A DNA stretch of 64,000 bases, from the sequence record NC_048818.1. One strand, written 5' to 3'. This DNA is from Escherichia phage VEc33. Numbering within the stretch: the first letter of the stretch is position 1; the number at the start of each line of letters is the position of its first letter. The notes beneath the pieces were generated by a model. The model did not search any database, was not told where the DNA came from, and saw only the letters and a list, made by a program, of their open reading frames with translations. This document shows, in pieces, positions 11,838 to 60,044 of this stretch. Both the position numbers and the translations under genes were made by a program.

Positions 11838-12000
11838 TCCAGAAAACATGCTTATTGAGCAATGGAACTTTGGTTATAATGCTGGTGTAGCTACTTGTAT
11901 TGCTAGATTGGATACGCTTATTAAGCAAGAAAAGGTACGCCCTGAGGAAGCAATTTTACTCCGAAATATTATCGAAGGATTTAAGCAAGGAATCGTATAG
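11806..12000 (+). CDS. Hypothetical small protein (64 aa); internal start of ORF-track 11722..12000
   Basis: ATG at 11806 preceded by GGAGGAGA SD; overlaps the end of the upstream ORF. Confidence 0.4.
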   Translation: MDFLNQNLKSNPENMLIEQWNFGYNAGVATCIARLDTLIKQEKVRPEEAILLRNIIEGFKQGIV

Positions 12001-12836
12001 TGCGTAGATTAATTATTATTAGCGGTGCAGGTTTGAGTGTTGAAAGTGGTGTACGAGCTTTTCGTACTGATACTGCTAGTGGTAAAGCATTGTGGGATGA
12101 TTATGATCTAGAAGAAGTATGTAATATTCATGCCTTTCGTGGTAATTTTTATCATAAAACCCATATGTTTTACAACAAACGTCGTGAAGAGCTAAAAACT
12201 GTTGAACCCAATCTTGCACATTTGCGTATTGGTGAATGGTATAAACAATATCCAGGTCAAGTAGTAAACTTGACTACCAACGTTGATGACCTTATTGAGC
12301 GTGCTGGCGTTCCACATAGTGACATTCTGCACATTCACGGATATTTAAAAGAGGTTGTTGTAGCTGATAGCTACAATAGTAGCAATAAACGGATTATTGA
12401 TGTAGGGTATAATTCTATTGATCCAGATGATTATAAATGGGTTAAACCTAATGTAATCTTCTTTGGAGAACATGCTCCTGCATACGCAGAAATGTATAAT
12501 GTTTTTGATGGTATTACCAGTCAAGATATGATCATTGTGGTTGGTTGCTCTAATCAAGTAATTAACTTCTACTGGGAATTATTTCCTGTTCTTAATTTGA
12601 CTGCTGCCAAACTAATGGTAGTTAACTACTATGATAGTGCCATAGCAGCAGAGCCAGGCTATCAAGGTATGACTCGTAGTGAGATGTACCAACTGGAAGA
12701 TCGTGGTATTCCTTACTGGAGTAATGGTGCGGTAGATGCTTTTAGTGACCCTGATTTTATTGCTCGTGTGGAAGCCCATTTAGAGGGTAGACCTTATGTG
12801 CCGGAGAGAAGGGGAAACAGATATGTCCATAGTTAA
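12000..12836 (+). CDS. Sir2-family (sirtuin-like) NAD-dependent enzyme, no zinc-ribbon cysteines
   Basis: GTG start overlapping upstream stop. Motifs GAGLSVESGVRAFR, NLTTNVDDLIERAG, HIHG, VIFFGE, VVGCSNQV match the Sir2 catalytic core; the CxxC...CxxC Zn module is absent. Confidence 0.75.
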   Translation: MRRLIIISGAGLSVESGVRAFRTDTASGKALWDDYDLEEVCNIHAFRGNFYHKTHMFYNKRREELKTVEPNLAHLRIGEWYKQYPGQVVNLTTNVDDLIERAGVPHSDILHIHGYLKEVVVADSYNSSNKRIIDVGYNSIDPDDYKWVKPNVIFFGEHAPAYAEMYNVFDGITSQDMIIVVGCSNQVINFYWELFPVLNLTAAKLMVVNYYDSAIAAEPGYQGMTRSEMYQLEDRGIPYWSNGAVDAFSDPDFIARVEAHLEGRPYVPERRGNRYVHS

Positions 12837-13005
12837 ATCTGTTTATACACATCCCGATGATATATTTGTATGGGCGGACGGTAGTTGGTGCTATCGCTGT
12901 GAGCTATGGGAAATGGACTATAAATCCGATGATTATGGTGTCATATATGTTGATACGGTTGAGTATGATACGTTCTTAGAAAGGGACAAAAATGGAAATA
13001 AGTAA
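12823..13005 (+). CDS. Hypothetical small protein (60 aa)
   Basis: ATG 12823 with GGGGAAAC SD; in frame with ORF-track start 12796. Confidence 0.4.
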   Translation: MSIVKSVYTHPDDIFVWADGSWCYRCELWEMDYKSDDYGVIYVDTVEYDTFLERDKNGNK

Positions 13006-13498
13006 TACTCCAATTATTTTTCTAGATATTGATGGGGTGCTCAACTCGAGCATCTCCCATCACCATGCACCTGATGATGAAAAGATTTTCTTTGGAAGTG
13101 ACTGGGTTTTTAAACCGCTTCTCAAGGCTTTTCAGGATTTTATTCGTCCTTCTCCAATAATGATTGTTGGGGTATCTTCATGGTTCTCTGTCAGGAATGA
13201 GATGGAGAACGTTCAGATTATGACCGGATTAGATCTTATCGATCGTTTTCTTGGTACAACGGATTTTACTGGTGGTGGATTATCTAGGGGTAATTCTGTT
13301 CTTCGCTTCGTTGAAAAGCATAAGCTCAAACATTGGTGTGTGCTGGATGATGCTGGTGCTATGATGTATCAGTATCCAACGGTTATAGTCAATGGTAGAA
13401 CTGGAATAAATCTTCAAGATTTAAGAGCTGTTAGCTATATGTTAGAATTTAGTCCAGATCTTGAAATGTGTAAAGCCCTGCAACAATTTAAGGTGTAA
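12992..13498 (+). CDS. HAD-superfamily-like hydrolase (putative phosphatase/nucleotidase)
   Basis: N-terminal motif I IIFLDIDGVLNS (hhhhDxDGV) and later WCVLDDAG (hhhDD). Confidence 0.5.
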   Translation: MEISNTPIIFLDIDGVLNSSISHHHAPDDEKIFFGSDWVFKPLLKAFQDFIRPSPIMIVGVSSWFSVRNEMENVQIMTGLDLIDRFLGTTDFTGGGLSRGNSVLRFVEKHKLKHWCVLDDAGAMMYQYPTVIVNGRTGINLQDLRAVSYMLEFSPDLEMCKALQQFKV

Positions 13499-13500
13499 AT

Positions 13501-13929
13501 ATGTTCAATAATGTATTCTCTAAAGAGGCTAACCCGATATTGGTTAATTTTTGGCGTACTCTTCCAGCCAACCTGTACAATGAGGCTATTAATGCTTTGA
13601 AAATATGGTGTGAGAATAATGAAATCTCCTTTGCTTTTAAAGGTGAGATTGAAGAGGCTCCCTGTATTGGTTTAATTGTGCAGGTGGAGGATGGTCTTGA
13701 AGAGATTGTCGGCTGGAAAGAGTTGGATGAAATGGGCTTGGTTTTTGCGTTAAACTATAAGCTGTTTATGCCCAATAAACACCGTATTGTTGTTAACTAT
13801 AAAACCAATGAATCTCCTGGTTTTCAAGTTAATGAACGGTATGGTTGGTCTTACTCACCAGAAGAAGTAAATGATGGTATCCAAAAACTTCGTCGTTTTG
13901 GTTATCAAATTCCGGGTTTAACCGCCTAA
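13501..13929 (+). CDS. Hypothetical protein, paralog A of a tandem pair
   Basis: Shares PCIG, E(L/M)xxMGLxxALN(Y/F)xLF and C-terminal (Q/Y)(I/V)PGL with the next ORF. Confidence 0.6.
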   Translation: MFNNVFSKEANPILVNFWRTLPANLYNEAINALKIWCENNEISFAFKGEIEEAPCIGLIVQVEDGLEEIVGWKELDEMGLVFALNYKLFMPNKHRIVVNYKTNESPGFQVNERYGWSYSPEEVNDGIQKLRRFGYQIPGLTA

Positions 13930-13938
13930 GGGGGCACA

Positions 13939-14331
13939 ATGGAACAAGTATATTGGCGTCAGATCGACCCTAGTTTGGTGAAGCGTGCAGAGAAGCTGCT
14001 ACAACGTTGGTTGGGGGTAAGACAAGCCTCCTTCACTTTTCCGGAGCAGCAAATAGACGATCCCTGTATTGGTGTTTTCCTATCAGGCTACGCTAGGGAA
14101 TGGGAATTGGATTGGAATGAGTTGTCTGCTATGGGTTTAATTGTTGCCCTAAATTTCTCTTTGTTCCATACACGTGGTTTGGCTATATGTCGTGTGCCTG
14201 ATGACGGTTGTTCGCCCCATCTTTTACAGGTGGAAGATGATATTTGGGAGTACACTCCAGATATTCTCAAAGAAGCTAAAGAACAATTAAATCGTGCTGG
14301 GATTTATGTTCCAGGCCTGAACGATGAATGA
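13939..14331 (+). CDS. Hypothetical protein, paralog B of a tandem pair
   Basis: See paralog A; SD GGGGGCACA upstream of ATG. Confidence 0.6.
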   Translation: MEQVYWRQIDPSLVKRAEKLLQRWLGVRQASFTFPEQQIDDPCIGVFLSGYAREWELDWNELSAMGLIVALNFSLFHTRGLAICRVPDDGCSPHLLQVEDDIWEYTPDILKEAKEQLNRAGIYVPGLNDE

Positions 14332-14422
14332 GTTTTATTAGCTGAACTCTGATTACCGAGCCATTTTGACTCGGTTTTCTCTATGTTCAAAGACACTGGT
14401 AGCAGCTCCTGGAAAAATCTAC

Positions 14423-14451
14423 TTGCAGGATGCCCAAAATCTTGATATAAT
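14423..14451 (+). promoter_or_regulatory. Sigma70-type promoter (TTGCAG, 17 bp, TATAAT) opening into a ~500 bp ORF-free region
   Basis: TTGCAG 14423-14428, TATAAT 14446-14451; no SD-supported ORF until GTG 14951. Confidence 0.55.
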
Positions 14452-14950
14452 ATTTATATTGAATTGAGAGACATTAGTAAAAATTGATTTTGCTAATTTT
14501 TCTTGTTTACAATCCGCGATACGGAACAGTTAGGCTGCCCCATTAAGGGTTGTTTTAACTGTTACGTGTTAGTTTTTAAACAAATAGTTAATAGAATACT
14601 TAGCGATCTGCGTCCCGTAGGAACCCTGGTAAGGCCTCGAAGCAACCTAGATAGAGGTGGTTGTGAAGTGAGACGGGAGGAGTGAAAAACTCCGAGACGT
14701 GATTCTGTAAGTTATATTGCATCTAGTATGAGCTAGTATATGAAGCATTAGGTGAGCAAATCTGGCTTAGCGGCCATCCTCAAGGATTTGTGCGGTATAG
14801 CAAAGCAGCAGCGCAGCGTGAAAGTGGAAGTTGCCACCCCACTTCAGTATTTGCGATTAATTTGTTGAGAAATTGACAGTAACAGTTGTTCTATTCTTTC
14901 TGAATAGTCCTAAAGAAAACTTATTTCATTTCCAACACAGGAGTATTGTT

Positions 14951-17740
14951 GTGTTTTCAATCCTACAAGGTCATGCAGGATTTCATCGCGATTTAGCCAC
15001 AGGCAATTGGCGAGAAGTTAAAGCAGAAGATTATCTTTTTGCTAAAAGATTTTCCTCAAAGCATCCTGAAGGTAAACCAGCTTCAATGCCCTTCAAGTTT
15101 GATGTAATTGACGAAGTTGATCCTCAAACCCTAGTAGAAATGCTTCCCATTATGAGACGTTTAACGTCTGACCCTCATATCGTTGCGGTACGAGGTCGAT
15201 GTCTTGCACCTAAAAATAATGTGCGGCGTAAGAAGGGCAACTTTAATGTATCTAACCCAAGTCATATAATCGCAATGGATGTGGATGGTATTGTAGATAC
15301 AGGTGGTTGTAACAAGTTTGATCTTGTTGGCATGGCTCGACATATTATTAGAATGTTAAATAGTATTAGTGAGGATATGTTCCCTCTTGATGCAGGGTTT
15401 ATCGCTCATGCATCATCTTCGGCTGGGCTAAAACCAGGTATCCGAATGCACTTAATACTAGAATCTAATGTTAAAGTAACTCAGGGTCAAATCAAATTCT
15501 TATTTACATCTATCAACGAAAGTAGTAGACAAAAGTATGGCTTTGATATTGCCGACCTAGCTTATTACTCTTCCGTACAGCTTCATTATTTTGCAGATCC
15601 GTTATTTATCGATGGTATAGTAGATCCGTTTAAAGCGGAGGGTGCTTCACGTCTGGTATTTGTTAAGGGTTCTAAAGTAAATTTACCCAATAATCTGGTT
15701 GACTATGAAACAACTAGAGGAGAGTTTAAAGAGGAGTTCTACTCCTTACTCGATCAAATTAAAGGTAAAAAGGCTGCCTCTGATAAAGTAGAAGAAACCA
15801 TCAGCGAGTTAGAAGAAGCCGAGGATGGAGTGTATCTACGTATTATTCCTAAACTCTATCACAGAGCTTTAGAGGATGGTGTTGATTTTGCATGGCTAGA
15901 AAAAGAAATCCGCCCAGCCTTATCAGAATATATTGCAACTAAAGATAATAGTCGTAATATTCAAGACTACTTTAATAACGGTCGTAAACAGGCTCTGAAA
16001 GCGTTTGTTAATAATTCTAAACGCGATATACCTGATGTTTTAAAAGGTATTCCACTTAAAAAGCTAGAAACTAATTCTCTAGAAACTGATAACTTCTTGA
16101 AATTAAACACTGTACCACCAGAAGGTTATATGACTTTTGTAAAAGCAAGTCTAGGTACAGGTAAAACCACGGCAGTTGTGCGTTGGTTAGATTCAGGGGT
16201 TATTAAAGGTAATTTCTTAGCAATTACCAATACTAGAGCACTGGTATCTTCAAATGCTAAGAAATTTAGTGCAGGACAGTATGATAAGTCTGTAGATATG
16301 CTTAATTTTAAGCGTGGTGCTATTGACCGTATGTCCACAACTATTCACTCTTTGCATAAATTCAAGAGTTTTATTGGTCAAATTGACGCAATCTTTATCG
16401 ATGAATGTGATGCAGTAATGAATGACCTATTATTCGCCCCGGTTGTTAAGCAACGTCGAGAGTGTATTCAGGTTCTTCGGGATATTCTTGCAACTGCAAA
16501 AATCATTATATTATCTGATGGGGATATTAGTGCAGAAACAATTGAAGCATATGGTTCTTTGATTGAGTTTGATAAACCGGTTGCATTTTATAATCATCAC
16601 CGTAAAATGCTATCAAAAGCTCATGCTTATGAGTTTCCTGATGAATCCAGTATTTGGGTTGCACTTCAGACTTCCCTGGAGATGGGTGAGAAATCTATCC
16701 TAGTATCTGACTGTGGGCCAGATGAACTGAATGAGAAGGGCATGGCGTTGCGTCGTAATACGGGTGCGTTAGTTAAGGAAATCCATTCAAATTCTACGTC
16801 TGATGTGGATATTAGACGTATCCTGGATTACACAACTAATGAGTTAATTGACCAACAAATTGATTGCTTATTATGTAGTCCATCCGTAACGAGTGGTGTT
16901 GACTTCAACTATTTTGATAACGTATTCGTTATTACTAGAACCTCAAACCAAGCGCCAAACATGCGTTTCCAAGCAATCAGGCGCGACCGTGGTGCTCAGA
17001 ATATCTATTATTTTATTGATAAATCCACTAGTGGATTCTCCGCAGGTTCTGAACAATATAATATTGATGAAGGTTGGCTGGAGTTAGCACAGCAATTATA
17101 TGCACGTCGCAGAGAGCTGGAATCTAGGAACTATACTAGTACTTTACGTTATTACTTGCTTGATCAGGGTGCAACTATTGATATTTTCAGCGAAAGCTGG
17201 GGAACTATTGAAGGTGCTGGTAAAGAGTACACAGAAGAGCGAATCAAAGCTATACTGTATTCAACTCCTGATTATTGTGCTCCACGCCATGCAGATGCGT
17301 ATGAAGCTAAACTACTTCTTGTTCGCTATTATCATCTTGAGTCTATTAAAGATGTAACAGTTGAGCATGTTGAACAATATATCAAGGATAAACCTAATGA
17401 TCGAGCGGCATTCTTCCATAAAATGCACGAGATGTTTTGGGAAGATATTAAGAAGTGTTCAAATGTCACTATCAAACCATTCATAGAAGCTCTGAAAGGT
17501 AAGAAGAAAGATTTCTTCCTTAAAACAGGTCAGAGTGCTAACCCAAAATATGCGAGAATGTATCTTGGTATGATGGGTATTGGTAAGGATATGAACACTG
17601 AAAATATTGTAGACTGGTACAGAACCTATTGTAAAATCGAGTGTATGCCAATCCCGTATAAGTTTATGACTGATGAGGAGAAACATATGCATGATGAAGC
17701 AATGGCAGAGCTAGGTGCTAGAAATGACAGTGAAGAATAA
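14951..17740 (+). CDS. Large replication-associated protein with P-loop NTPase/helicase-like domain
   Basis: GTG start 14951 with AGGAG SD 7 nt upstream (ORF-track TTG at 14873 lacks SD). Walker A ASLGTGKTT, Walker B IFIDECD; ~400 aa N-terminal region unassigned. Confidence 0.7.
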   Translation: MFSILQGHAGFHRDLATGNWREVKAEDYLFAKRFSSKHPEGKPASMPFKFDVIDEVDPQTLVEMLPIMRRLTSDPHIVAVRGRCLAPKNNVRRKKGNFNVSNPSHIIAMDVDGIVDTGGCNKFDLVGMARHIIRMLNSISEDMFPLDAGFIAHASSSAGLKPGIRMHLILESNVKVTQGQIKFLFTSINESSRQKYGFDIADLAYYSSVQLHYFADPLFIDGIVDPFKAEGASRLVFVKGSKVNLPNNLVDYETTRGEFKEEFYSLLDQIKGKKAASDKVEETISELEEAEDGVYLRIIPKLYHRALEDGVDFAWLEKEIRPALSEYIATKDNSRNIQDYFNNGRKQALKAFVNNSKRDIPDVLKGIPLKKLETNSLETDNFLKLNTVPPEGYMTFVKASLGTGKTTAVVRWLDSGVIKGNFLAITNTRALVSSNAKKFSAGQYDKSVDMLNFKRGAIDRMSTTIHSLHKFKSFIGQIDAIFIDECDAVMNDLLFAPVVKQRRECIQVLRDILATAKIIILSDGDISAETIEAYGSLIEFDKPVAFYNHHRKMLSKAHAYEFPDESSIWVALQTSLEMGEKSILVSDCGPDELNEKGMALRRNTGALVKEIHSNSTSDVDIRRILDYTTNELIDQQIDCLLCSPSVTSGVDFNYFDNVFVITRTSNQAPNMRFQAIRRDRGAQNIYYFIDKSTSGFSAGSEQYNIDEGWLELAQQLYARRRELESRNYTSTLRYYLLDQGATIDIFSESWGTIEGAGKEYTEERIKAILYSTPDYCAPRHADAYEAKLLLVRYYHLESIKDVTVEHVEQYIKDKPNDRAAFFHKMHEMFWEDIKKCSNVTIKPFIEALKGKKKDFFLKTGQSANPKYARMYLGMMGIGKDMNTENIVDWYRTYCKIECMPIPYKFMTDEEKHMHDEAMAELGARNDSEE

Positions 17741-58727: not shown

Positions 58728-60044
58728 TTATTTACCACGGGAAATAGAGTAAATTCCATAGCGCAGAGCATCACAGAGGTGAGAGTTAGCATCATGACGT
58801 GGTTTTTCACGCGATAATTTCTCTTCGCCTTCTTGGAAGTCCCACTTATAGTTCTGCAATGCATGAATTAAGGAGGAACATGAGGCATCTACAATAATCT
58901 TACCCTGTTGGAATAGTGCCTGCAAACATGCTAGGCCATCTAGGACAGATTTTTTAGCTGGAGCTGATGCAATTTCATGCTCGTAAGCTAAATCCTGGCG
59001 GAACTGAGCGGCGGCAGAGTCAACAAAAATACGATCAACTTTATAACGATCTATACAATGCTGAATATAAGCAGCGTGCTGGGCTGTAGTTTTTTCAGCC
59101 TGCTGGTACTCTTCTAATACATAGTAAGTATCCGTATCGTAATGATATTTAATAGTAAGAACTGCTGTAGGATCACGATAACCAACGTCAATGCCAAGCA
59201 ACGTTTCGAATGCTTCATCATCTTTAAAGAAGTGACGCATACCTTTGAGGTCTTTAACATGATCTATAGCATTGAAGGTATCAAATATCTGGCCTTCGAA
59301 TACAGAGAAGTCAGCCTCATATTCTTGGCGGAAATAGTTTTTACTAACTGTACGACGTGCTTCCTCAATATCATTCAAGTCGGCACGTGGGTTATCACGA
59401 TATGTACCATGAATAGATACCCAGTTAGGCAACGTATCATCAAATCCGTAGGCGTAAAACTCTTTAAACCAGTTACCCCCACGAGGGGTGGAAATAAATA
59501 GAGCCTTAGAATTAGGCTTATCTAGAGTAGGACGCAGCTGAACCCTGAAGGCATCACCACCCACATCGGAAATTGCCGCCTCATCAAAGATGATAAAATC
59601 ATATGAACGTCCAACTGCGGAGTCAGCCTGAGCCGCGGAAGCTAGTTTAAATAGAGAACCATTAGCTAACTCAATCTCTTTATCTTTAGCGTTTTCACGT
59701 TCGGTTTGTAGGCCATACTTCTTAATAAGACCACGAATCTGAGACCATCCAATATTAGCCAGTGAATAGTTAGGTGCAACAACAAGCACTTTTACATTGG
59801 GTTCTAGCAACTTTAGGAACCCAAGTGTATATGCTATAAAGGACTTGCCTACACGGCGTGATACACACGCCGTTACAAAACGATGTCTAGGGTCTTCTAG
59901 GGCATTGATAATTGCTATTTGAGGGCCGTTAGGTGTAATACCCTCTTGTGCTAATATTCCAGAAACAGGTAGACGGAAGAAACGTTTGTCTATTCCGAAA
60001 TCAATAACATCTACTGTGTTAACATAGGGTCTTGACACTTCCAT
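58728..60044 (-). CDS. Terminase large subunit
   Basis: 438 aa; Walker A-like RRVGKS, Walker B DFIIFDEAA, C-terminal nuclease-like acidic residues. Confidence 0.88.
   Translation of the reverse strand: MEVSRPYVNTVDVIDFGIDKRFFRLPVSGILAQEGITPNGPQIAIINALEDPRHRFVTACVSRRVGKSFIAYTLGFLKLLEPNVKVLVVAPNYSLANIGWSQIRGLIKKYGLQTERENAKDKEIELANGSLFKLASAAQADSAVGRSYDFIIFDEAAISDVGGDAFRVQLRPTLDKPNSKALFISTPRGGNWFKEFYAYGFDDTLPNWVSIHGTYRDNPRADLNDIEEARRTVSKNYFRQEYEADFSVFEGQIFDTFNAIDHVKDLKGMRHFFKDDEAFETLLGIDVGYRDPTAVLTIKYHYDTDTYYVLEEYQQAEKTTAQHAAYIQHCIDRYKVDRIFVDSAAAQFRQDLAYEHEIASAPAKKSVLDGLACLQALFQQGKIIVDASCSSLIHALQNYKWDFQEGEEKLSREKPRHDANSHLCDALRYGIYSISRGK

Follow-up and report, generated by a model that had tools for sequence, protein, structure and literature searches.

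A large structured RNA as the best reading of the non-coding region upstream of D2 in Escherichia phage VEc33 and other T5-like phages

The region directly upstream of the D2 gene in Escherichia phage VEc33, a T5-like phage, is best read as encoding a new, large structured RNA on the D2-coding strand. It occupies positions 14332-14950 of the window, by which we mean the whole 64,000-nucleotide stretch of sequence record NC_048818.1 that was analyzed, and no Rfam family or examined record annotates the approximately 490-nt RNA that precedes D2. An earlier note on this DNA had suggested a structured non-coding RNA, a long regulatory leader or a replication origin. The first two of these are strongly supported by a region that is conserved, promoter-driven and ORF-free, and by compensatory changes on the D2-sense strand.

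For decades T5 has served as a model phage, and the start of its DNA replication is unsettled, with published reports disagreeing as to where replication begins. We found nothing specific in the literature on a structured RNA of T5, a T5 transcriptome, RNase III processing or a mapped origin. Few large structured RNAs are known in virulent model phages, and a covariation-supported domain of more than 300 nt shared across several T5-like genera would be one of them; this one directly precedes the essential helicase D2. Existing T5 editing tools make it possible to mutate its precise helices, its invariant UAGC loop and its candidate RNase III stalk, and D2 is available in purified form (PMC3632103).

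Results

The locus and its reading frames

The region is bounded on one side by the terminator-like hairpin of the upstream operon and on the other by the GTG start codon of D2 at 14951. The second DUF7415 paralog ends with a stop codon at 14331, and the hairpin (14355-14381, + strand, inverted repeat I15), in which ACCGAGCCA pairs with TGACTCGGT ahead of a U-tract, closes the Sir2 / HAD / DUF7415 operon. A matching terminator is annotated in T5 (AY543070) and in phage Lindwurm, and relatives keep a hairpin and U-tract at this site with different stem sequences. The D2 gene itself (14951-17740, + strand; named D2 in T5 record AY692264) encodes a 929-aa bipolar SF2 helicase that usually carries the label "replication origin binding protein". 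D2 homologues aligned from the matching start have the same first residues, with M1 and F2 invariant.

As the earlier note had claimed, the region is free of ORFs in any meaningful sense: the longest frames between 14331 and 14951 are one of 60 aa (14503-14685, TTG start) and one of 40 aa on the minus strand (14600-14722), neither of which is conserved in relatives, and a search of the relatives on both strands for a conserved protein frame found none. These two frames, together with a 43-aa minus-strand frame that is open in all T5-type sequences and the 3-5 tiny "hypothetical proteins" annotated in the region in some GenBank records, are what would speak for a small protein gene hidden on either strand. 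However, the 60-aa ORF is down to 50 aa in a close relative and is missing from T5-type phages, the minus-strand frames of window-type and T5-type phages encode unrelated peptides, and the window-type minus-strand frame is absent from one relative (L035). The T5-type frame starts with GTG, has no Shine-Dalgarno (SD) sequence and differs at 9 of its 43 residues between close relatives, and careful T5 reference annotations (AY543070, AY692264) leave this 470-nt stretch blank. We regard a hidden small gene as exceedingly improbable. The 3-5 "hypothetical proteins" are spurious, and the present result corrects the database annotation in this respect.

Conservation among relatives

In 31 of 31 related viral contigs the D2 homologue is preceded by an ORF-free gap of 533-886 bp, and the gap-bearing contigs include some in which the N-terminal 300 residues of D2 are only 56-73% identical to those encoded in the window. 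Large gaps are also found in more distant Vibrio and Aeromonas phages of the Demerecviridae. Phage records matching the region numbered 526, and a metagenome scan with a D2 profile returned 10 loci, with one new lineage (L116) among them. The structured domain is common to the Tequintavirus, Epseptimavirus, Klebsiella Sugarland, Proteus Stubb, Pectobacterium My1 and DU_PP_V lineages, and it is possibly present in Aeromonas phages as well. The fold was found at the D2 locus in every lineage examined.

Promoter and transcript

The TTGCAG-N17-TATAAT promoter that had been proposed at 14423-14451 is located exactly there and fits the phage's own promoter type, a T5 early-type sigma-70 promoter on the + strand, with TTGCAG at 14423-14428, TATAAT at 14446-14451 and a TG at 14443-14444 that makes an extended -10 element. 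A generic promoter scan missed it because only 3 of 6 positions in its -35 hexamer agree with TTGACA. The window holds 16 occurrences of the pattern TTGnnn-N17-TATAATA, where 0.6 would be expected, and TTGC begins 12 of them. The promoter sequence also includes ATATT, which has been reported for T5 early promoters (PMC7472727). In most relatives its identity is 92.5-100%, T5 has it annotated as a promoter, and in lineages with an inserted HNH gene a different promoter substitutes at the site, so that the leader promoter is kept or replaced in relatives but never lost. Most promoters of the same type in the window lie 25-64 nt from their gene, compared with approximately 500 nt for this one. 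Transcription is predicted from the promoter sequence to start near 14458; this start site, the RNA ends and any processing of the leader are features that we infer.

A second promoter had been suggested at 14484-14513 (TTGATT-N18-TACAAT). The motif is indeed present, but it is a 9/12 match of a kind found 6 times against 4.5 expected, it sits within the 5' hairpin and linker, and more distant lineages have a different sequence there. It is best explained by chance. In window-type and T5-type phages we found neither an intrinsic terminator in the leader after the domain nor a second promoter between the fold and D2, so the primary transcript in these phages is simply the D2 mRNA leader and the fold is part of the D2 5' UTR. 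In Proteus phage Stubb, one perfect 12/12 promoter precedes the RNA and another perfect promoter stands 37 nt ahead of the D2 ATG, and in Aeromonas phage TS3 the non-coding region is separated from obp by a long hairpin with U6 after it.

Folding and covariation

The leader has a minimum free energy of -137.3 kcal/mol, with z = -3.65 on the + strand as against z = -2.29 on the - strand, and the closed domain within it folds at -100.9 kcal/mol (z = -4.2) on the + strand as against -76.6 kcal/mol (z = -2.5) on the - strand. We measured covariation in an alignment of 25 sequences (A2) and in an alignment of five deeper lineages (A5). For A2, alifold gave 98 pairs with 99.6% of cells paired. Changes on both sides were observed in 22 of these 98 pairs, compared with 1-3 in slid controls, many of the double changes coming from one deep split between window-type and T5-type phages and so not being independent events. 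The A2 covariation score was 0.224, compared with 0.03-0.05 in slid controls, and was reached by none of 500 shuffles. For A5, 41 of 60 pairs were changed on both sides, compared with 10-15 in slid controls, the score was 0.564 against approximately 0.11, and on each of the five measures none of 500 shuffles reached the observed value. Twelve helices of the core covary across the five lineages. Folding and covariation analysis against T5-like relatives, which the earlier note had named as a check on its structural reading, thus reveals strong covariation in both alignments on the D2-sense strand. G.U pairs make up 18.1% of pair cells, indicating that the fold belongs to the + (D2-sense) strand only.

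The first 100 nt of the leader are conserved as sequence and not by covariation (of the first 100 aligned positions, 93 do not vary among the 25 sequences), which could reflect a site that is read on the DNA. The stalks are also visible when the 5' and 3' parts are compared by RNAduplex with shuffled controls; the z-scores from this comparison are uninformative because pairing runs over the whole sequences. In 77 of 80 records, leaders of the Klebsiella Sugarland type share at least 99% identity, so that they offer no within-type covariation. A domain alignment combining T5-type sequences, L030 and L031 (the Providencia PSTCR5 group) and Proteus was misaligned and uninformative.

Parts of the leader RNA

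All features described here lie on the + strand. The whole non-coding leader RNA (14458-14950, 493 nt) extends from the predicted start to the base preceding the D2 start codon and has no conserved ORF and no Rfam match. Approximately 8 nt from its 5' end is P1, a 16-bp hairpin (14466-14504; GAGAGAC-AUUAGUAAAA...UUUUGCUAAU-UUUUCUU) that is invariant in 25 sequences, and a hairpin of other sequence is found at the P1 position in the Sugarland, DU_PP_V and My1 phages, the L030 lineage, Stubb and L116. Hairpins at the 5' end are well known to stabilise mRNA, and P1 may do so here. Downstream of P1 is a sequence-conserved block, AUACGGAACAGUUAGGCUGCCCCAU (14516-14555), which includes the small hairpin P2 (14532-14555) and is recognisable in DU_PP_V, My1, Sugarland and L116. 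A pattern search of viral contigs for this block returned T5-like loci and one chance match in a GC-rich coding region; each T5-like contig found carries one copy, at the same locus in those examined.

The block is followed by the 5' strand of a long AU-rich stalk (14556-14600), which pairs with a 3' strand at 14846-14888 and closes a 333-nt domain. In the window's own fold the stalk comprises 39 bp in four runs of 10, 11, 11 and 7, with single-base bulges on the 5' strand and one short internal loop, a length beyond the approximately 20 bp or more of flanking helix expected of an RNase III stalk, and it is kept by compensatory and one-sided changes. Of the pairs in stalk helices 4-6 of the 25-sequence alignment, 4 are changed on both sides and 6 on one side. 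Comparable stalks are found in T5, DU_PP_V, My1, the L030 lineage, Stubb and L116, and the stalk is ambiguous in Klebsiella Sugarland-type phages. A local pairing of 14521-14532 with 14556-14567 was considered and rejected, since most T5-type sequences do not maintain it, whereas the stalk shows compensation (alignment pair 103-431). Extra modules are tolerated outside the stalk, such as a 97-nt insert after P1.

Enclosed by the stalk is a core of approximately 245 nt (14601-14845, 49% GC) with a hypervariable sequence in which the helices are kept. The core is approximately 41% identical between window-type and T5-type phages, compared with 80-100% for its flanks; few short motifs in it are invariant, and the many invariant nucleotides of a riboswitch aptamer core are not seen. 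The multi-branch core is closed by P4, in which GAUCUGCGU (14603-14613) pairs with GCGCAGCGU (14811-14819); 4 of its pairs are changed on both sides in the 25-sequence alignment, and it is also a covarying helix across the five lineages. The two hairpins that the earlier note had picked out in this region are both real helices with compensatory changes, but its coordinates were one base off. The P5 domain (14613-14678) consists of an outer helix between TCCCGT (14613-14618) and ACGGGA (14673-14678) around CCU-GGUA-AGG (14625-14634) and GCAACC / GGUUGU (14642-14664), and in L036 and L037 a G-C pair of its outer helix has become A-U in a compensatory change. Its helices are numbers 3-6 of the covarying set of the five lineages, the outer one being helix 3. 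The adjoining P6 hairpin, GGAGU-GAAAA-ACUCC (14679-14693), has a G-C to A-U change in L035 and corresponds to covarying helices 7-8 of the five lineages. Immediately after P6 is a conserved unpaired junction, GAGAnGUG (14694-14701), of which 14695-14697 and 14699-14701 are invariant across the five lineages of A5. Direct GAGACG repeats had also been noticed here; both copies exist, at 14670 and 14694, but the second is GAGAAG in L035, and the first lies within helix strands, the second in the unpaired junction. The repeat is best explained by chance.

Further along the core is the P12 / P13 module (14756-14791), with an outer helix of GCAAAUCU and GGAUUUGU, an inner hairpin GGCU[UAGC]GGCC at 14764-14775 and an asymmetric loop on the 3' side. 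The hairpin CU[UAGC]GG within it is invariant, with CUUAGCGG unchanged in 11 sequences representing at least 8 lineages. Local folding recovered the UAGC module in 9 of the 11 sequences, including that of Aeromonas phage TS3, each with a different outer helix; the MAFFT alignment of the 11 is out of structural register in its 3' half. In the five-lineage alignment all 8 pairs of helix 11, which belongs to this module, are changed on both sides. Directly before the stalk 3' strand is the P15 hairpin (14822-14844), AAGUGG...CCACUU with the loop AAGUUGCCACC, which occurs in the compensatory variants AAGGGG / CCCCUU, AUAUGA / UCAUAU, GUAUGA / UCAUAC and GUAUGG / CCAUAC and also covaries across the five lineages. 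Tetraloops of the GNRA and UNCG classes are not enriched in the leader relative to the D2 coding sequence (9/98 vs 42/558, p = 0.35).

Between the stalk and the ribosome-binding site is P16, a hairpin CUAUUC-UUUCU-GAAUAG (14891-14907) that is invariant in 25 sequences; its position is taken by CUAUC-CUU-GAUAG in Sugarland and by CCUG...CAGG in L030. The D2 SD sequence, AGGAG (14939-14943), is located 7 nt before the GTG at 14951. Alifold predicts pairing of AGGA (14939-14942) with UCCU (14908-14911), both invariant, and of 14943-14949 with 14516-14522, which would close the whole leader. Among lineages the predicted SD accessibility spans 0.01 to 0.77, and for most of them taking away the long leader makes little difference to it. 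The predicted occlusion of the SD by the long leader is thus inconsistent among lineages.

Searches for known RNA families

An Rfam scan had been suggested as a further check, and it matched no family. With Rfam 15 at the gathering score, the whole window had no match, including to ROOL, GOLLD, HEARO, OLE, raiA, 6S, tmRNA, RNase P, T-box and riboswitch families. At E <= 10, positions 14200-15100 gave only noise of 10-16 bits, and at E <= 1 nothing was found at the locus in ten relatives. ARAGORN found no tRNA or tmRNA genes in the window.

The N-terminal half of D2

In the N-terminal half of D2, a DxD is invariant and further acidic and histidine residues are conserved, and this half has no recognisable fold. 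It had no match in Pfam, and its profile had none among PDB sequences; a large protein index held only two partial homologues. A single-sequence AlphaFold model of this half was unusable (pLDDT 34).

Discussion

A discrete RNA or a leader acting in cis

Our preferred reading, which we hold tentatively and put at rather short of an even chance, is that the domain closed by the stalk constitutes a discrete functional RNA, possibly one that RNase III processes, and its function is one that we infer. The host RNase III cuts long perfect-to-bulged flanking duplexes in rRNA precursors and T7 early mRNAs, although its cleavage is not reliably predictable from sequence. The promoter at 14423-14451 would start the 493-nt leader, in which P1, the conserved block with P2, the stalk, the core, P16, the ribosome-binding site and D2 follow one another. 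An RNase III cut in the stalk would then release or insulate a stable RNA particle of approximately 290-330 nt, and the D2 mRNA would keep a short leader with the P16 hairpin as its cap. The particle might act through its invariant single-stranded features, that is, the UAGC loop, the GAGAnGUG junction and the P15 loop, with either a protein or a second RNA as its partner. The conserved adjacency makes D2 itself and the replication machinery the obvious candidates, but adjacency may mean no functional link, since gene order is conserved throughout this phage family. We read the domain as a discrete unit because of the two promoters of Stubb, the hairpin and U6 of TS3 and the modules tolerated outside the stalk.

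With no terminator in window-type and T5-type phages, a cis-acting role fits equally well. The fold would in that case be purely a 5' leader of the D2 mRNA that sets D2 stability or translation, by hiding the ribosome-binding site or serving as an operator, with no RNA released. The absence of an intervening terminator or promoter in these phages, the GTG start codon of D2, the likeness of P1 to a stabiliser and the alifold pairings of the SD with 14908-14911 and of 14943-14949 with 14516-14522 are all consistent with this. The closing helices, however, are invariant and so provide no covariation evidence, and SD accessibility is mostly little affected by removal of the leader. In Stubb, D2 has its perfect promoter downstream of the fold. 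In addition, a 333-nt domain of about 12 helices is far beyond the needs of an operator, and the core varies too much in sequence to be a small-molecule aptamer. We judge a purely cis-acting leader to be unlikely.

Origins, single-stranded DNA and mobile elements

The earlier note's third reading, a replication origin, is without specific support. Such an origin would be transcript-dependent, with a persistent RNA-DNA hybrid or a processed primer, in the manner of ColE1 RNA II and of T4 oriF and oriG, and with D2 acting at the site. Initiator genes often adjoin their origins, and the constant position of the element beside D2, a replication initiator candidate, is as expected of an origin. The promoter at 14423-14451 transcribes into the site, as in a transcription-primed origin, and it is a strong early promoter leading into AT-rich DNA (24% GC at 14458-14515 and 21% in the stalk 5' arm), AT-richness alone not being origin-specific. 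The first 100 nt of the leader are more conserved than the flanking genes, and ColE1 RNA II, a pre-primer RNA of approximately 550 nt that can depend on its fold, provides a precedent for a fold-dependent pre-primer. The locus lies at approximately 48.7% of the T5 genome, with the RNA region at about 59,080-59,544 of AY543070, and first-round T5 replication is said to start near the molecule's centre, as Bourguignon et al. reportedly found in 1976. On the other side, neither iterons nor inverted initiator boxes were found in the region, whose repeats of 9-17 nt are all two-copy and consistent with chance, and there are no DnaA boxes with up to 1 mismatch. Nor does GC skew turn at this locus; it turns at approximately 8.5 kb and 36.5 kb of the window, and it follows gene orientation, for which reason we rejected it as an origin marker. 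We know of no R-loop origin that requires a 12-helix covarying core. The strand bias of T5 recombitron editing was read by its authors as dominant unidirectional replication from one genome end (10.1101/2023.03.24.534024). The available part of the D2 paper proposes a role in replication initiation for D2, directly downstream of the element, and describes D2 amber mutants that make no DNA, but it reports no sequence-specific origin binding by D2 (PMC3632103). The sole basis of the "origin-binding" label is a set of helicase motifs that D2 has in common with herpesvirus UL9 (Pfam 29 bits, residues 394-533). Overall, we consider an origin at this site quite unlikely.

The fold could also operate in + strand ssDNA, as a single-strand initiation or priming signal like plasmid ssi and sso or the complementary-strand origins of phiX174 and G4, since covariation and G.T tolerance would look identical for ssDNA of the same strand. 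The invariant loop with its closing bases, TAGCGG, resembles at 5 of 6 bases the CS-6 motif TAGCGT in the loop of ssoA origins, and the N-terminal half of D2, with its conserved residues and no recognisable fold, may conceivably have priming activity. Known ssi and sso signals, however, are much smaller than a 333-nt stalk-closed domain, and T5 is a linear dsDNA phage and not a rolling-circle plasmid. Furthermore, because a conserved promoter points into the element in every lineage, RNA is the simpler reading, and we think a role as ssDNA very unlikely. A further alternative is a miniature inverted-repeat element or recombination scar, in which the arms of approximately 40 bp would be the terminal inverted repeats of mobile or once-mobile DNA. 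The AT-rich inverted arms around a core of approximately 245 bp have that appearance, the core looks like a cassette that is swappable between phage groups, and homing-endonuclease genes and the 97-nt insert land nearby. Against mobility, the conserved block occurs once per T5-like contig found and at the same locus in those examined, the fold is at this locus in every lineage examined, the core helices covary, and G.U pairs make the arms imperfect as DNA repeats. We saw no transposase or target-site duplication, and there is hardly any chance that a mobile element accounts for the locus.

Comparison with known systems

As in the RNase III stalks of 16S and 23S rRNA precursors, the flanks of a structured RNA pair here over two or more helical turns, but those stalks have rRNA inside and the VEc33 stalk holds nothing rRNA-like. 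The R sites of T7 early mRNA resemble the VEc33 element in lying within an early phage transcript made by host RNA polymerase; they are local intergenic hairpins, whereas the VEc33 stalk, a candidate for cleavage, encloses a 245-nt domain. With ROOL, GOLLD, OLE, HEARO and raiA, the large "ornate" non-coding RNAs of bacteria and phages, the VEc33 RNA shares a length of several hundred nt, many covarying helices, few invariant nucleotides and its occurrence in a phage, and it differs from them in having no Rfam match, in being found at one syntenic T5-like locus and in forming the leader of a replication gene. ColE1 RNA II, T4 oriF and oriG and the T7 primary origin have, as here, a strong promoter directed into AT-rich DNA beside replication genes, but skew and the recombitron strand bias do not point to the VEc33 locus. 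Like riboswitch, T-box and r-protein leaders and the translational operators of T4 gene 32 and gene 43, the VEc33 leader lies between a promoter and a start codon, with a 5' hairpin and possible SD pairing. It is much larger than these, has a hypervariable core in place of a conserved aptamer and no terminator-type expression platform, its SD occlusion is inconsistent, and the D2 gene of Stubb has its own downstream promoter.

A more far-reaching proposal, which we offer as speculation and believe unlikely to be right, is that the RNA represents a new class of phage RNA. It would either be part of replication initiation, as a cofactor, loading platform or pre-primer for D2 at an unmapped internal T5 origin, or be a released particle that acts in trans on a host target in early takeover, in which case the two ancient core types exchanged by recombination would reflect an arms race.

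The P6 hairpin also bears a likeness to the boxB hairpin of the lambda nut site, GCCCU-GAAAA-AGGGC, with which it shares a 5-bp stem, a U-A closing pair and a GAAAA loop. The P6 loop sequence is different in other lineages, and we regard the likeness as a coincidence.

Genomic setting and promoter

The region upstream of gene D2 encodes a strand-specific, conserved, promoter-driven RNA fold. The window belongs to a T5-like phage. In a nucleotide search, 14300-15000 was 97.4% identical to Escherichia phage vB_Eco_mar004NP2, and among the 526 phage records that matched this segment, T5-family (Demerecviridae) phages of Salmonella, Escherichia and Klebsiella predominate. Upstream lies an operon for a Sir2-family protein (12000-12836), a protein with a HAD_SAK_2 domain, of the "Swiss Army Knife RNA repair" type (12992-13498), and a tandem pair of DUF7415 paralogs (13501-13929 and 13939-14331), the second of which ends the operon and adjoins the RNA region. 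Cumulative GC skew of the window has its minimum at ~8.5 kb and its maximum at ~36.5 kb, both at gene-orientation switches.

An earlier note on 14332-14950 described an ORF-free region with promoters, hairpins and a repeat, and all of these features are present at positions right to within one base. The longest ORF in 14332-14950 is 60 aa. We confirmed the proposed promoter, TTGCAG-N17-TATAAT, at 14423-14451 and observed besides an extended -10 TG at 14443-14444; a generic promoter scan missed this promoter because its -35 hexamer matches at only 3/6 positions. The window holds 16 occurrences of TTGnnn-N17-TATAATA versus 0.6 expected, and by its sequence the 14423-14451 promoter belongs to the phage's own promoter family. 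It also includes ATATT, as described for early promoters of T5 (PMC7472727). For most others of its type in the window, the distance to the gene is 25-64 nt; for 14423-14451 it is ~500 nt. The T5 annotation places a terminator and a promoter at the homologous positions and leaves the next 470 nt blank. The second promoter proposed, at 14484-14513, is a 9/12 match of chance frequency, and more distant lineages differ in sequence there.

The promoter segment (14413-14473) has a second copy, ~85% identical, in Klebsiella Sugarland-like phages, within genes annotated DNA helicase, which points to reuse of a promoter module. In the related contig L003 (1429-1965), and also in L013, L018, L026 and phage bobsandoy (L075), a gene for a 178-aa HNH_3 homing endonuclease lies between the DUF7415 paralog and the RNA. 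This insertion swaps the native promoter for its own TTGCAA-N17-TATAAT, and its junction falls exactly at GAGAGACATTAG, the start of the first predicted helix, P1.

Fold and covariation

The folding and covariation analysis called for in the earlier note supports the fold in both informative alignments. RNAalifold on 25 sequences of the window type and T5 type, the two main sequence types of the leader core, returned 98 pairs, 22 of them changed on both sides (just 1-3 in slid controls), with 99.6% of cells paired. The covariation score was 0.224, versus 0.03-0.05 for slid controls, and was reached by 0/500 shuffles. Because many of these double changes trace to the single deep split between window-type and T5-type sequences, we made a five-lineage alignment of the stalk-closed domain, comprising the window type, metagenomic contig L116, Pectobacterium phages DU_PP_V and My1, and Klebsiella phage Sugarland. 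Here, 41 of 60 consensus pairs are changed on both sides (10-15 when slid), and the score is 0.564 versus ~0.11 slid, with 0/500 shuffles reaching the observed values on all five measures. An alignment of the T5-type, L030/L031 (Providencia phage PSTCR5 group) and Proteus domains was misaligned and uninformative.

The predicted fold, on the + strand, begins with P1 (14466-14504), followed by a conserved block with P2 (14516-14555) and the stalk (14556-14600 with 14846-14888), which is 39 bp in the window's own fold. The core comprises P4 (14603-14613 with 14811-14819), P5 (14614-14618 with 14673-14677, with three small helices inside), P6 (14679-14693, GGAGU-GAAAA-ACUCC), P7 (14711-14718 with 14794-14801), P8 (14723-14736), P12/P13 (14756-14791, holding GGCU[UAGC]GGCC) and P15 (14822-14844); P16 (14891-14907) lies 3' of the stalk. 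P5 and P6 are the two hairpins of the earlier note. The GAGACG repeat described beside them exists but is not kept in a close relative. Tetraloop enrichment in the leader was not significant.

G.U pairs account for 18.1% of pair cells, and 29/98 pairs are G.U in some sequence. Since G.U pairs are A.C mismatches on the other strand, the fold belongs to the + strand. The predicted energy of the closed domain is -100.9 kcal/mol (z = -4.2) for the + strand; for the - strand, in which the stalk falls apart, it is -76.6 kcal/mol (z = -2.5). An Rfam scan of the window and ten relatives' loci, also proposed earlier, gave no family match, and the window contains no tRNA or tmRNA genes.

Conservation across lineages

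The region is neither absent nor unconserved in relatives: in 31/31 related viral contigs, D2 is preceded by 533-886 bp free of ORFs, including some in which the N-terminal 300 residues of D2 are just 56-73% identical to the window's. Further afield, Vibrio and Aeromonas phages have a gap of ~640 to 1590 bp before the D2 homologue, which in two Vibrio records is broken solely by short ORFs, annotated at 29-56 aa. In the equivalent gap of Vibrio phage vB_VpS_PG07 (contig L069), a 64-nt module without recognisable likeness to the T5-type RNA is duplicated at 1928-1991 and 2041-2104; the copies are 113 nt apart and 95% identical.

Between window-type and T5-type phages, promoter identity is 92.5-100%, the flanking genes are ~92% and ~85% identical, and identity in 14601-14870 falls to ~41% with length nearly unchanged. 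Of the first 100 transcribed positions, 93 do not vary among all 25 sequences. Judged from these alignments, conserved flanks around a divergent core of almost constant length are the signature of a fold kept while sequence drifts or is exchanged.

Leaders of Klebsiella Sugarland, Pectobacterium DU_PP_V and My1, L030 (sister contig to L031, Providencia phage PSTCR5), Proteus Stubb and L116, folded singly, have the same element order: promoter, 5' hairpin, block, long stalk, core with UAGC hairpin, small hairpin and RBS. The stalk is ambiguous in Sugarland alone among these six. Duplex z-scores were uninformative. Eleven sequences share the octamer CUUAGCGG without change; in an alignment of them, the 3' half of the module around it falls out of structural register. 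Local folding recovers the UAGC module (outer helix, 4-bp inner helix, UAGC loop and 3'-side asymmetric loop) in 9/11, Aeromonas phage vB_AdhS_TS3 among them, with a different outer helix each time. Stubb (contig L064) has two perfect 12/12 sigma-70 consensus promoters, one before the RNA (1705-1733) and the other (2435-2464) 37 nt upstream of the D2 ATG. In TS3 (contig L070), a 1.6-kb non-coding gap (719-2308) precedes obp, and a long hairpin followed by U6 (~2168-2215) separates the non-coding region from that gene. The second promoter of Stubb and the hairpin-U6 of TS3 suggest that the RNA forms an independent unit.

Stubb also carries ~225 nt of extra non-coding sequence between stalk and second promoter, with a second GCCUUAGC-like motif inside, and in the TS3 gap CCCGAAAAGCU[UAGC]GGUUUUUCGGG occurs at ~1190-1215 and CUUAGCGG again at 1443. 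Contigs L010 (1957-2053), L023 and L032 carry 97 additional nt, flanked by TTTTTCTT, between P1 and the block (after window position 14504); this optional insert occurs in window-type and T5-type backgrounds alike. It is found in 51 phage records, in single copy each at 90-100% identity, and at the RNA locus in the contigs examined, a pattern that suggests an added RNA module more than a mobile element present in many copies.

The downstream gene

D2 (929 aa, GTG at 14951), named after T5 record AY692264, lies directly downstream. D2 has been characterised biochemically as a bipolar SF2 helicase, D2 amber mutants lack DNA synthesis, and an initiator role is proposed (PMC3632103); the passages considered do not report sequence-specific origin binding. 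As far as its sequence tells, the label "replication origin binding protein" rests on helicase motifs in common with herpesvirus UL9 only. Pfam Herpes_ori_bp matches residues 394-533 at 29 bits, and PDB matches span residues 388-532. The N-terminal half (residues 1-390, window 14951-16120) has no Pfam or PDB sequence match. Within it, D110-x-D112, S155, S157, H167 and D202 are invariant across ten Demerecviridae lineages, and our guess is a nucleotidyl-transferase or primase-like active site.

Possible functions of the RNA

The earlier note offered a structured non-coding RNA, a regulatory leader or a replication origin; the fold bears out the RNA readings, and the origin has no specific support. 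By analogy, we tentatively favour a discrete RNA domain. The 39-bp duplex of domain-flanking sequences would be an RNase III target arrangement as in rRNA precursors; cutting at the stalk would release or insulate the domain, leaving the D2 mRNA a short leader with a hairpin cap. Partners may contact the invariant unpaired motifs, namely the UAGC loop, the GAGAnGUG junction and the P15 loop. That the RNA acts purely in cis as the D2 leader is rather unlikely: window-type and T5-type phages have no terminator ahead of D2, which fits such a leader, but the SD pairing is invariant and thus lacks covariation support, predicted SD accessibility is inconsistent, and Stubb has its second promoter.

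An origin or primer transcript is doubtful. In its favour, D2 adjoins the element, AT-rich DNA follows the promoter, the 5' 100 nt are nearly invariant in sequence, and the locus, at ~48.7% of the T5 genome, fits the early replication that Bourguignon et al. in 1976 reportedly placed near the centre of the molecule. However, the region has no iterons, DnaA boxes or skew signal, and an editing study of T5 inferred mainly unidirectional replication from one genome end (10.1101/2023.03.24.534024). We consider an ssDNA signal very unlikely, and a MITE-like element or a small protein most improbable. No ORF is kept across relatives: one close relative has a shortened version of the 60-aa frame, T5-type phages lack it, and minus-strand frames give unrelated peptides in the two types, without SD and with mostly non-synonymous changes. 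PP554579 (1567-2069 of contig L002) and other T5-like records annotate 3-5 tiny "hypothetical proteins" (33-60 aa) within the RNA region, which are probably false gene calls.

Comparison with known RNAs

The element is a large structured phage RNA, a kind already known, and is a member of no known class compared, every Rfam model failing. At this locus, the defining features of riboswitch leaders and initiator-box origins were lacking or gave no clear outcome. Literature searches on T5 structured RNA, transcriptome, RNase III processing and a mapped origin returned nothing specific. Predicted viral RNA structures have been catalogued in bulk (PMC10690425), and the text of that catalogue makes no mention of T5-like phages; an earlier unnamed prediction of the RNA is possible. 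The element would work most like processed stalk-closed RNAs, such as rRNA-precursor stalks and T7 R sites, and in appearance comes closest to the large "ornate" RNAs, a group of unknown function. P6 resembles the lambda nutR boxB hairpin in its stem length, its U-A closing pair and its GAAAA loop, probably by coincidence; the P6 loop is not kept in other lineages.
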